From contig OY970364.1 of the NCBI GenBank assembly GCA_963718565.1, forward strand, positions 704,001 to 768,000: a DNA stretch of 64,000 bases, read 5' to 3'. How positions within the stretch are numbered: position 1 is the first letter of the stretch; each line of letters begins with the position of its first letter. Of the stretch, positions 56,866 through 59,151 are shown piece after piece. The stretch is from an uncultured Verrucomicrobiae bacterium (GTDB taxonomy: Bacteria; Chlamydiota; Chlamydiia; Chlamydiales; Rhabdochlamydiaceae). The translations under genes and the position numbers were made by a program. The notes below the pieces were generated by a model. It saw nothing but the letters and a program-made list of their open reading frames with translations. It did no database searches and was not told the DNA's origin.

Positions 56866-59151
56866 ATGTTCGAGCTTTCCGTCGCTTTAAAGTATCTCAT
56901 TCCGCGCAGAAGACAGCTTTCCGTCTCTTTAATCGCTCTTCTTTCCGTGGTTGTGATCTCGCTTGTTGTTTGGCTGGTTCTGGTCTTCCTTTCTGTCACC
57001 GAAGGGATAGAGCGCGGCTGGCTGCAGAAATTGACAACTTTAAATGCTCCTTTACGGATCACTCCGACACATCACTATTATTCTTCTTATTACTATCAGA
57101 TTGATTCCGTCAGCAACCGTTCTGATTATTCTTTAAAAAATATCGCAGAGAAAGCGCGCACAGAGAGTGCAGACCCCTACAATTCCTTAGAAGATGGAGA
57201 GTTGCCAGTTCGATTTCCACAGCCTGACCTTTCCAGAGAGGGGGCGCTAAGCGATCCCGTGAAAGGGCTATTTCAGATACTGTCAGGCATGAAAAAATCC
57301 CATTCCGATCTCGTTTTTCAAGATTTTGAGCTGAGTGGAGCTCTGCTGCGCCTGCAGCTTTTACGACCTGGCAATGGGATGCCAGGCACAGAAACTCAAG
57401 GATATCTTACCCAAGTCTCCTATCTGGCCTCTCTTCCCGATCAGTGCCCTAGGCTTTCCTCTCTGCTTCTTCCTCCAAGAGAAAAAGATCTGAATCATTT
57501 GCTTTATCTCGCTTCGCACTCTACGGAGCTATCGCGTCAAGATTCCCCAGCATTCACTCTTAAAACTAGCAGAGAGACCGCACAAAACCGTATTCATGCC
57601 CTTCTTCAGCATGTCACCATCAAACAGCTTAAGCCCTCTTATTCGTTCTGGCAGGTTCCTTCTTCCTTTTTACCCTTAACCCAAGTTTTTGAAGGAATCG
57701 TTCACGACGGTCATGGAAGCATCAGCCGCATCGATCTGCCTTTAGAAAAAGGAAAGGGCAGACAGACATCTGGCAACCCTGTAAAGGTCTGGAAAAACAG
57801 CTCCCACTTCATCGTGGAGGATGAAAAAGGCAAACAGCAAGTTCTCTCGTTAAATACCCCCCTTTTAGTCGACGGCCCGATTCTTTTTCATGTGGAAGGC
57901 GTTTCGAAAACAATCCCCCTTCTATTTAAAGTCCACACTTCTCTTCAGGGCATTTCTTTTAAAGGAGATCTCGGAATAGAGGGGATGGAAATTGTCCAAG
58001 CAGATTTTTTCTCGCAACAATTATACCGCGCGCAGGAAGGTTTTGTGAATTTGGACTCAGCGAGGCAAAGCACAATCGAAGCTTGCGCTCCGAATGACGA
58101 AGCCATAGTGAAAACTATGGCTGCGGAGACACGAGAAGGTCTAGTAGACCTTCGCAGTACAGAGCAGGTGAGCGAAGCGAACGGGGAGGATCGATTGGGC
58201 AAAGCCGCAGCCAGTCCAAATTCACAAAACCTGACGGAGCGCGGTATAGGTCCGGCAGCTCCTTGGATCGGCCCACAAAAACTCCTTCCTATCAACGAAG
58301 AAAATGAAACAGGTGTTCTGCTCGCTAAAAGCTTTTTAGACCATGGAGTGATGATGGGTGATCGAGGCTACCTTTCCTATTCGAGCACGACATCCAGCGC
58401 AGTCCAAGAACATCGCCTACCGGTCTTTGTCTCTGGATTTTACGATCCCGGTATTCTCTCTGTAGGGAATAAATGCATCCTTGTTCCTCCTTTTGTCACG
58501 AGCACGATCAATGCCTCAAGCACATCCTTCAATCTCGATAAAACACAGTCCAATGGCATTCTGGTCTGGTTTGATAGCCTCCAGGAAGCGGGTGAGATTA
58601 AACATCAGATCTTGGCAGCTTTGAAAAGCCAAGGTCTCGACAAATACTGGAAAGTCACGACCTTTCGAGAATATGAATTTGCTAAAGATCTTCTAGAGCA
58701 GTTCCAAAGCGATAAGTATCTCTTTGCCTTGATCGGCGTCATCATCCTGATCGTCGCCTGTTGCAATATCATCTCTTTGCTCGTCCTGCTCGTCAATGAT
58801 AAAAAACGCGAAATCGGCATTTTGCAGACAATGGGGGCAAGCAATGTCAGCATCGCCGTCATTTTCGGGTCCTGCGGCATGGCCATGGGGATCTTAAGCA
58901 GCATCATTGGGGCTGTTGCTGCAGTATTCACTCTTCATCATATCGACATCGTCGTTCAATTCCTGAGCTTTATTCAAGGCCACGAAGCTTTCAATACAAT
59001 GTTTTTTGGAAAGTCGCTTCCCGGTGCTTTAAGCCGCAATGCATTGACTTTCATTTTAGTGACCACTCCCCTTCTTTCTCTTTTAGCAGGACTTGTTCCC
59101 GCAATTAAAGCTTGCCGCCTCCGCCCCTCCGCGATATTGAGGTCCGAGTGA
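56866..59151 (+). CDS. lolE: LolC/E-type ABC permease carrying a 75-aa in-frame repeat-derived insertion
   Basis: MFELSVALKYL.P.RR N-terminus; C-terminal IVACCNIIS...KKREIGIL..MGAS and PA.KA....P..ILR.E; coupled to lolD. Confidence 0.88.
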   Translation: MFELSVALKYLIPRRRQLSVSLIALLSVVVISLVVWLVLVFLSVTEGIERGWLQKLTTLNAPLRITPTHHYYSSYYYQIDSVSNRSDYSLKNIAEKARTESADPYNSLEDGELPVRFPQPDLSREGALSDPVKGLFQILSGMKKSHSDLVFQDFELSGALLRLQLLRPGNGMPGTETQGYLTQVSYLASLPDQCPRLSSLLLPPREKDLNHLLYLASHSTELSRQDSPAFTLKTSRETAQNRIHALLQHVTIKQLKPSYSFWQVPSSFLPLTQVFEGIVHDGHGSISRIDLPLEKGKGRQTSGNPVKVWKNSSHFIVEDEKGKQQVLSLNTPLLVDGPILFHVEGVSKTIPLLFKVHTSLQGISFKGDLGIEGMEIVQADFFSQQLYRAQEGFVNLDSARQSTIEACAPNDEAIVKTMAAETREGLVDLRSTEQVSEANGEDRLGKAAASPNSQNLTERGIGPAAPWIGPQKLLPINEENETGVLLAKSFLDHGVMMGDRGYLSYSSTTSSAVQEHRLPVFVSGFYDPGILSVGNKCILVPPFVTSTINASSTSFNLDKTQSNGILVWFDSLQEAGEIKHQILAALKSQGLDKYWKVTTFREYEFAKDLLEQFQSDKYLFALIGVIILIVACCNIISLLVLLVNDKKREIGILQTMGASNVSIAVIFGSCGMAMGILSSIIGAVAAVFTLHHIDIVVQFLSFIQGHEAFNTMFFGKSLPGALSRNALTFILVTTPLLSLLAGLVPAIKACRLRPSAILRSE
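58022..58248 (+). repeat. Repeat family A, full 227-bp TA-flanked element inside lolE
   Basis: TATACCGCGC-N6-AGGTTTTGTGAATTTGGACT at both ends; removing 225 bp restores CAA-CAA-TTA-GGT-CCG (QQLGP). Confidence 0.95.

Follow-up and report, generated by a model that had tools for sequence, protein, structure and literature searches.

Our data indicate that a TA-duplicating MITE, a non-autonomous repeat with terminal inverted repeats (TIRs), has very probably inserted in frame into a LolC/E-like permease gene of a member of the Rhabdochlamydiaceae, that the 75 residues it adds are tolerated, and that the copies of this repeat now found within genes are the survivors of a filter. The gene lies in a stretch of 64,000 nucleotides, referred to here as the window, in which the insertion and its surroundings have the following layout:

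56866..59151, plus strand: intact gene for a LolC/E-like FtsX-type ABC permease of 761 aa (Pfam FtsX, 5.8e-11)
58022..58248, plus strand: 227-bp MITE copy of the long 'A' form, in frame within the LolC/E-like gene
58022..58079, plus strand: left inverted-repeat arm, encoding YRAQEGFVNLDSARQS, with the outer 36 nt as the conserved terminus
58022..58023, no strand: TA, left copy of the putative target-site duplication (right copy at 58247-58248)
58128..58185, plus strand: internal 58-bp block, present in the 227-bp form and absent from the 170-bp form
58191..58248, plus strand: right inverted-repeat arm, encoding ...AASPNSQNLTERGI
59112..59816, plus strand: LolD-like ABC ATPase gene (Pfam ABC_tran), overlapping the permease gene at its 3' end

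A preliminary description of this DNA had reported a 227-bp element with TA at both ends and imperfect TIRs of 36 bp, and we confirmed it. The element begins with TATAC and ends with GTATA, its outer 36 nt pair at 89%, and the inverted arms extend to 58 nt with 78% complementarity. The net gain is 225 bp, or 75 codons (permease residues 386-460), which read YRAQEGFVNLDSARQ...QNLTERGI in the permease frame; the junctions with QQL before and GPA after are as described earlier and lie within the open 761-aa frame. Within the left-arm peptide, G6, F7, V8, N9 and L10 are invariant (n=10 copies). The internal 58-bp block falls within a 72-bp module (58118-58186) that is approximately 82% identical to the center of a second MITE family with unrelated ends. 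The element carries no transposase gene, and its sole open frames are 75-aa read-through frames. As single-stranded RNA it is predicted to fold along its whole length (-108.7 kcal/mol, z = -10.8), and none of 200 shuffled sequences was as stable. A hairpin of this strength within an mRNA could impede translation.

In the permease, a single N-terminal membrane helix is followed by a large periplasmic domain and three C-terminal membrane helices. Its best NCBIfam match is lolCE (TIGR02212) at 166.4 bits, under the 362.45-bit cut-off, and the best match of the neighboring ATPase is LolD at 218.6 bits, likewise under its cut-off of 307.75 bits. A Foldseek search with the AlphaFold2 model of the permease returned LolCDE chains (LolE, LolC) as its top 12 matches, with a best E value of 2.7e-13. 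The structural best match is Escherichia coli LolCDE (9rlc, 7arh, 7mdx), here with a LolD-like ATPase gene adjacent; compared with the E. coli protein, the chlamydial permease is approximately 270 residues longer even when the insert is not counted. In the ortholog alignment, gaps are frequent around the insertion site, and the region varies in length. The AlphaFold2 model assigns pLDDT values below 50 to residues 384-466, bounded by confident strands at 374-381 and 482-487, although the lack of homologs of the insert in the alignment itself accounts for part of this low confidence. The alignment and the model agree with the earlier placement of the insert in the soluble domain, as a predicted periplasmic loop of low model confidence between confident strands. 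The sense peptide of the insert is hydrophilic and acidic (GRAVY -0.67, pI 4.55). An acidic, hydrophilic insert in a periplasmic linker that already varies in length among orthologs is most likely accommodated by the transporter as a disordered loop on its surface. The insert is presumably translated, and the added peptide is presumably neutral.

That the mature product lacks the insert, either through intron- or intein-like removal or because the gene, though open, is a dead pseudogene, is very unlikely. The highly stable RNA hairpin would be in keeping with such a reading; however, a search of Rfam over positions 57900-58400 found no family at E <= 1, intron families included, and if the insert were removed, an exact gain of 3n together with the stop-free frame found in every genic copy would be unnecessary. 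Also against this reading are the conservation of the permease flanks, which are 74% identical to the nearest ortholog, and a protein search of the genome, in which this was the sole LolC/E-like gene and the remaining matches were all repeat copies. An intron or intein was rejected, with no signature present and every genic copy in frame.

We found 87 clustered loci matching the element in the 2.28-Mb genome by blastn, a search that the preliminary description had suggested, and the repeat is therefore far above chance level. Approximately 26 of these loci match the internal 72-bp module alone, as part of the second repeat family, while approximately 60 are true family members that are dispersed and have unrelated flanks. 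Two-ended copies (31 were inspected, in four size classes, with fragments besides) are 227, 170, about 93, or about 172 bp long. The 170-bp copies correspond to element positions 1-106 and 165-227, and metagenome contigs were seen in which 58127 is joined directly to 58186. Every 227- and 170-bp copy starts with TATAC and ends with GTATA. Four further members lie in the window:

27094..27320, minus strand: second 227-bp copy, 93% identical, with an open sense frame, outside any long gene
60169..60231 (genome 764169-764231), plus strand: right-end fragment of 63 bp (element positions 165-227), 98% identical
18567..18636 (genome 722567-722636), plus strand: right-end fragment of 70 bp (element positions 158-227), 90% identical
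25633..25804, plus strand: diverged 'D' form copy of approximately 172 bp, with ends approximately 80% identical to the query

The copy at 27094-27320 matches the preliminary description in length and identity and is oppositely oriented. The 63-bp fragment sits downstream of the LolD-like gene, in the spacer, and the 70-bp fragment lies directly downstream of an 836-aa ORF. For the 'D' form copy, the blastn match covers genome positions 729633-729693, with paired termini at 729635 and 729771. Within the genus, the repeat had matches in 16 of 18 other genomes; beyond it, matches occurred in three of six other genera of the family and in none of 16 other families. Small size, TIRs, dispersed copies, and a TA gain at an empty site identify the element as a MITE that occurs in a single Rhabdochlamydiaceae genus and in a few neighboring genera. 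A further genomic copy of the element is 99% identical, which makes the suggested recent transposition of the family plausible.

The insertion in the LolC/E-like gene is lineage specific. Among 29 ortholog loci fetched from other genomes, one had no ORF of at least 400 aa and one had an N-truncated ORF; the insert was absent from all 27 that were aligned. Furthermore, an ortholog was present in 17 of 18 same-genus genomes, and the insert was covered at that locus in none of the 17. Deletion in the relatives rather than insertion here was rejected, given the dispersed, repetitive nature of the segment and its absence from all 44 orthologs examined. The TA duplication claimed earlier gains support from an empty site in a DUF455-like gene, where the G000 sequence reads AAA TTA [element] TA AAA CAG and the orthologs without the element read AAA TTG AAA AAA (G005) and AAA TTT AAG (G001); that is, AAATTA[element]TAAAACAG compares with AAATTGAAAAAA or AAATTTAAG. 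All 13 genus orthologs that have both halves of this gene lack its insert. Judged from these alignments, the net gain at the DUF455-like site is the element plus one TA, which points to TA target duplication. Codon arithmetic agrees, since 227-2 = 225 and 170-2 = 168 are each divisible by three.

Misplacement of a repeat copy into lolE during assembly is exceedingly unlikely. Pieces identical to the lolE flanks were present in soil-metagenome contigs (X1-X3), but contigs end at the element ends, and none bridged either junction or carried the empty site; these contig sets contained no more than 0.39 of the sampled words, and one metatranscriptome contained 0.06. In an RNA-library run (X12), element-bearing contigs have foreign flanks, and one is the 170-bp form. 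Since no read or contig bridges either junction, the junctions rest on the source assembly, which is a single contig of 2.28 Mb and as such speaks against an artifact. A repeat placed by mistake would, moreover, preserve the host frame in just one case in three and would more rarely still leave it open, and similar in-frame insertions occur in independent assemblies from other sources.

The LYRAQEGFVNLDSARQ... frame is not confined to the permease. In this genome it occurs in five to six genes, encoding the LolC/E-like, TolC-like, and DUF455-like proteins, a TPS-domain protein, TsaE, and one unnamed protein, and it is found in 18 proteins on other Rhabdochlamydiaceae contigs, including MutS, a P-type ATPase, a SpoU methylase, an E1 dehydrogenase, and a histidine kinase. 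A profile built from 10 copies matched 125 protein clusters (E <= 0.001), 31 of them at least 200 aa long, and Pfam domains (e.g., DapB, ThiF, and Chorismate_bind) were found in 13 of 28 scanned profile-matched proteins. The family had been described as donating peptides to genes, and the fact that unrelated genes read the same frame bears this out. As read from these sequences, the family behaves like the Rickettsia palindromic elements (RPEs), inserting repeatedly in frame into unrelated conserved genes via one frame. It had also been suggested that either orientation could be tolerated. The antisense frame is indeed open, and the reported opposite-strand ORF (57945..58295) exists and encodes 116 aa; however, this frame is rarely used, occurring in two proteins compared to 24 for the sense frame in the same kind of search.

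Length and frame are associated. All nine 227- or 170-bp copies have an open frame save for one point stop, with five inside long ORFs and one at a gene start, while the six copies of 171, 229, or 230 bp contain stops and none lies inside an ORF (Fisher p = 0.03-0.04, which is overstated because the copies are related by descent). We propose that the element would have transposed, through an IS630/Tc1-type enzyme acting in trans, into a TA within a TTA codon of the only LolC/E-like permease gene of the species, which remains open because the element and the duplicated TA together come to 225 bp and one element frame is stop-free. Copies would land anywhere, and persistence within a gene would require a suitable length, phase, and orientation.

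It is unlikely that the module was instead exapted, that is, kept in LolC/E and other hosts because it serves them, for instance as a binding tag common to them or as a surface loop that can vary. Copies that are just 41-63% identical overall do share two conserved end-encoded motifs, but these motifs coincide exactly with the terminal inverted repeats, so that transposition and recent ancestry explain their conservation. Many conserved proteins from several genomes have retained the module, yet each host insertion checked is limited to one species. Some hosts are envelope proteins in which the module sits right behind the signal peptide (TolC-like, and Legionella_OMP-like at residues 26-79); however, the hosts include cytoplasmic proteins (MutS, TsaE, SpoU, and DapB) as well as periplasmic and outer-membrane proteins and therefore have no common setting. 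The AlphaFold2 model, in which the insert appears without structure, also argues against exaptation.

In-frame insertion filtered by survival remains our preferred account. The TA duplication is consistent with the earlier suggestion of IS630/Tc1 mobilization, but no autonomous element with matching ends was found in this genome or among six IS630 loci of relatives, none of which had a MITE-type terminus, and such a partner is putative. No correctly oriented pair of ends 0.6-3 kb apart turned up when the genome was scanned for the TIRs, and a genome self-comparison yielded approximately 10 IS families, none with similar termini. The resident IS630 (1124 bp, about 15 copies) has the ends TATACTATTCATG... 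and TATACTCTAGAAA... and shares with the MITE end, TATACCGCGCGCAGG..., the five terminal bases TATAC alone. Among relatives, the repeat and DDE_3 transposases are not distributed together: G005 shows 44 matches to the repeat but no DDE_3, while G016 has no repeat matches and 11 DDE_3, a test weakened by draft genomes and old copies. Solo ends at genome positions 533027 and 537078 were rejected as an IS, since both lie within a segmental duplication.

The second MITE family (approximately 182 or 257 bp, with GAGGGAATTGC ends and 4-bp duplications) has in-frame copies within MutY and a chorismate-binding enzyme. In both families the lengths including the duplication make up whole codons, and one frame lacks stops and encodes a hydrophilic peptide. 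Tentatively, these data might mean that MITE families of the Rhabdochlamydiaceae, at least two in number, are shaped for intragenic life as a convergent counterpart of the RPEs, possibly having exchanged the internal module, and that they form a standing source of loops and linkers, including in the envelope, with some inserts selected. Occurrence in a second obligate intracellular lineage, unrelated to Rickettsia, suggests a general outcome in gene-dense genomes, in which the surviving intragenic copies are mainly those that leave the gene readable. The insertions also provide a natural catalogue of tolerated sites (LolC/E, TolC-like, MutS, P-type ATPase, and others), a warning for annotation and phylogenetics that chlamydial proteins may contain repeat-derived inserts of 56-75 residues, and, through the presence or absence of copies, typing markers for strains of uncultured Rhabdochlamydiaceae.

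The Correia/NEMIS elements of Neisseria and RUP of pneumococcus are TA-duplicating MITEs linked to IS630/Tc1-mariner transposases; they are mainly intergenic and affect transcription. The chlamydial family shares with them a size of 100-230 bp, TIRs, TA ends, an end-to-end hairpin, and many dispersed copies. In contrast to them, a sizeable share of its intact copies lies within genes and is predicted to be translated, and it has no end-matched IS630. Our literature search found no paper describing such an in-frame repeat family in Chlamydiae, in line with the preliminary description. According to the sections available of a report on Coxiella burnetii (PMC5896051), the MITEs QMITE1 and QMITE2 overlap annotated ORFs, with a few in frame mid-ORF; the overlaps are mostly at gene ends or in hypothetical proteins, and the basic peptides that QMITE1 encodes stand alone. 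Compared with QMITE as described there, the chlamydial family inserts a predicted acidic peptide into enzymes and transporters that are conserved. The elements RPE-1 to RPE-10 (Ogata et al. 2000, as summarized in part of a review, PMC10969869) are small palindromic repeats found in frame in unrelated conserved genes. On that partial account, both systems combine an obligate intracellular host, one conserved peptide frame, and sites that the fold tolerates. The host here belongs to the Rhabdochlamydiaceae of the phylum Chlamydiota, and the likeness described here is one of behavior. Unlike the RPEs as summarized there, the chlamydial family has clear TA-flanked TIRs and several lengths (227, 170, and 93 bp), and its long form has a module in common with a second MITE family.

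We found that the LolC/E-like permease gene stays open through a 227-bp palindromic element, which it reads as the predicted peptide YRAQEGFVNLDSARQ...NSQNLTERGI, bounded by QQL and GPA. The inverted-repeat arms span 58 nt with 78% complementarity, the outer 36 nt being paired at 89%, and as single-stranded RNA the element has a predicted end-to-end fold with a free energy of -108.7 kcal/mol (z = -10.8), a stability reached by 0 of 200 shuffles. The preliminary description of its length, inverted repeats, in-frame position in a lolE-type ORF, second copy and antisense ORF proved correct on recomputation. 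The copies and ORFs concerned lie in the window as follows.

58022-58248, 227-bp element, starts TATAC and ends GTATA
56866..59151, plus strand, host ORF, 761 aa in one open frame
57945..58295, opposite-strand ORF over the element
27094-27320, second 227-bp copy, reverse orientation, equal length, 93% identity
~25633-25804, ~172-bp copy
18567-18636, element fragment
60169-60231, element fragment

The 75-residue segment of the LolC/E-like gene is an insertion, and the empty site that had been expected from an alignment of orthologs was found throughout. We collected 29 ortholog loci, from one genome of the same genus and from other genera in the family, and 28 of them had an ORF of at least 400 aa; 27 were aligned, one N-truncated ORF being omitted. 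The segment is missing from 27 of 27, among which the insertion region itself varies by 0 to ~25 residues. Within the genus the ortholog is present in 17 of 18 genomes (the sole miss is a genome 74% complete), and in all 17 the alignment is interrupted at the insert and continues immediately in the target DNA.

The label "lolE-type" is fair for fold and context, because the solved structures closest to the AlphaFold2 model of the host protein are the LolE and LolC chains of E. coli LolCDE (best E 2.7e-13) and the gene next to the permease gene is LolD-like (Pfam, NCBIfam), but not by curated score, the top NCBIfam model (lolCE) giving 166 bits against a cut-off of 362. Pfam places an FtsX domain at the C-terminus of the protein, and a protein search of the genome recovers only one LolC/E-like gene, the remaining matches being repeat copies. 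In the model, built from 28 sequences (mean pLDDT 77.5, pTM 0.71), one membrane helix at the N-terminus and three at the C-terminus flank a large extracytoplasmic domain rich in beta structure. Over residues 384-466, flanked by confident strands (374-381 and 482-487), pLDDT falls below 50, which is partly expected because the alignment holds no homologs of the insert. Taken together with the variable linker among orthologs, this low pLDDT indicates that the insert is a loop in the predicted structure.

The proposed repeat family was borne out by blastn with the element, which gave 87 clustered loci across the genome (2.28 Mb, one contig), in-frame intragenic copies included, of which ~26 match positions 97-165 only and were assigned to a different repeat family. 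End fragments of the family are also present, and the copies take four forms.

227 bp, full length
170 bp, positions 1-106 and 165-227
~93 bp, positions 1-50 and 177-227
~172 bp, diverged, ends ~80% identical

The repeat appears to have been active in this lineage recently relative to species divergence, given that the lolE copy shares 99% identity with one further 227-bp copy and the 170-bp copies are 96.5-98.8% alike. Outside the source genome, the element matches 16 of 18 genomes in the same genus. Matches extend to 3 of 6 other genera in the family and to none of 16 further families in the order; one matching protein carries the source label Rhabdochlamydiaceae. Adjoining the fragment at 18567-18636, a 348-aa ORF (18713-19759, minus strand) has a serine recombinase-like (resolvase-type) N-terminus.

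The description of the family as peptide-donating held in several proteins of the source genome, which share one sense frame (LYRAQEGFVNLDSARQ...).

LolC/E-like gene
TolC-like outer-membrane protein, residues 23-79, directly after the signal peptide
DUF455-like protein, residues 208-264
Filamentous-haemagglutinin N-terminal domain protein, at the C-terminal end
Unnamed 328-aa protein, residues 225-281
TsaE, at the very start, possibly a mere upstream extension

In 10 of 10 strong genus orthologs of the TolC-like protein, the alignment begins only at residue 72-79. An older in-frame copy, 72% identical, lies in a 602-aa NADAR and tyrosine-phosphatase protein (G000:C1:1290081-1291889), where it interrupts the phosphatase domain immediately before the CHAGVGRT motif. 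Searching the 77-aa insert against 5.8 billion proteins, longer proteins only, returned 24 matches among 159 candidates. Eighteen came from other contigs, with hosts that include MutS, a P-type ATPase, a SpoU methylase, an FAD oxidoreductase, a formyltransferase, a histidine kinase, a pseudopilin-like protein and an E1 dehydrogenase. When a profile built from 10 copies was run against 1.84 billion cluster representatives, 125 proteins matched with E <= 0.001, including 57 with E <= 1e-10. The majority are short ORFs predicted on extragenic copies, and 31 have at least 200 aa. Pfam domains were present in 13 of the 28 scanned among these 31 (DapB, class II tRNA-synthetase anticodon, ThiF, Chorismate_bind, PyrI, PP2C, YkuD, Legionella_OMP-type porin, protein kinase and others), the module lying at the protein end or between domains.

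All intact copies run TATAC...GTATA between unrelated flanks, and the DUF455-like gene supplies filled and empty sites.

Source genome: AAG AAA TTA (element) TA AAA CAG CCT GAA
Ortholog in the related genome G005: AAG AAA TTG AAA AAA CCT GAA
Ortholog in the related genome G001: AAA AAA TTT AAG TCT CCA GAT

The net gain is therefore the element plus one TA, and the insert is missing in 13 of 13 genus orthologs having both halves. The 227- and 170-bp forms thus add 225 and 168 bp net, which explains how they preserve the host frame. Among 15 copies compared in the 227/170-bp lineage, nine have a length of exactly 227 or 170 bp; the sense frame is stop-free in eight and interrupted by one point stop in the ninth. 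Of these nine, five are located within long ORFs and one at a gene start. The remaining six, longer by one to three bases, contain stops and are all outside ORFs (171 bp at G000:C1:26828, 119468, 906955 and 1409584; 230 and 229 bp at 2254057 and 2258521). The association of length and frame with ORF location (Fisher's test, p = 0.03-0.04) is indicative only, because the copies are kin. In the 171/229/230-bp sub-lineage the extra base falls right after the left terminus (GGACT), closing the sense frame, and the same one-base variants were found in soil-metagenome contigs.

All genic copies in the source genome are in sense orientation, yet one antisense frame is open in nearly all copies. Tolerance of either orientation in a gene, as first suggested, is thus possible but rare: the antisense peptide was found in 2 proteins among 321 candidates, one probably an N-terminal over-extension, versus 24 for sense. 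With a GRAVY of -0.67 and a pI of 4.55, the sense peptide is hydrophilic and acidic, whereas the antisense peptide (GRAVY 0.33, pI 10.8) is basic and hydrophobic and contains four cysteines, a contrast consistent with selection against disruptive peptides.

TA duplication with terminal inverted repeats is typical of an IS630/Tc1-mariner-type transposase, and from these two features such an enzyme, acting in trans, would mobilise the element. The resident IS630 (1124 bp, ~15 near-identical copies at 99.9%, with a 360-aa DDE_3 transposase; e.g., G000:C1 864072-865200) is a possible, somewhat doubtful partner, its ends having TATAC alone in common with those of the repeat. No similar ends were found in ~10 IS families of the genome by self-comparison or at 6 IS630 loci of relatives, and the distribution of DDE_3 genes among relatives does not follow that of the repeat. 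Of the original suggestion of an IS630/Tc1-mobilised MITE, the TA duplication stands on the empty DUF455-like site, but no IS630 or other IS with matching ends was found among those compared. The genome also carries about nine IS families besides IS630, and recently active mobile DNA is abundant in it.

Two MITE families appear to have exchanged an internal module, since the 227-bp form amounts to the 170-bp form plus a block from a module common to both. The 58 bp that distinguish the two forms fall within a 72-bp hairpin module (window 58118-58186), which shares ~82% identity with the centre of a second family with ends GAGGGAATTGCAAAACTCC. This family is the more abundant, with 279 ends and 78 paired copies in a TIR scan of the genome, most commonly of 182 bp (23 copies) or 257-259 bp (19 copies), with examples of the family at G000:C1:1721238-1721419 and 556703-556959; a 56-bp mini copy lies at ~62624-62679 of the window. 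Its flanks are 4-bp direct repeats (e.g., taat...taat, ttaa...ttaa), and 182+4 and 257+4 are whole numbers of codons. Copies lie in frame within a MutY-like protein (HhH-GPD and NUDIX_4; residues 273-334) and a chorismate-binding enzyme (residues 143-229), and in many others the open frame continues into the opening codons of an ORF, perhaps by mere over-extension.

We found no published description of such an in-frame repeat in Chlamydiae in mostly openly accessible literature (main texts), nor a literature report of palindromic elements in protein-coding genes of chlamydia-like bacteria. In the portions available, three Rhabdochlamydia(ceae) papers (PMC9723776, PMC9997750, PMC13229535) concern transposases and IS expansion only, and "Chlamyd" does not occur in a 2024 MITE review (PMC10969869), an excerpt of which presents Rickettsia palindromic elements as an extreme case of in-frame MITEs. 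Partner transposase and two-orientation claim apart, the sequence comparisons support the reading that the element belongs to a new MITE family. The family resembles the Rickettsia palindromic elements in its in-frame behaviour and differs from them in the phylum of its host.
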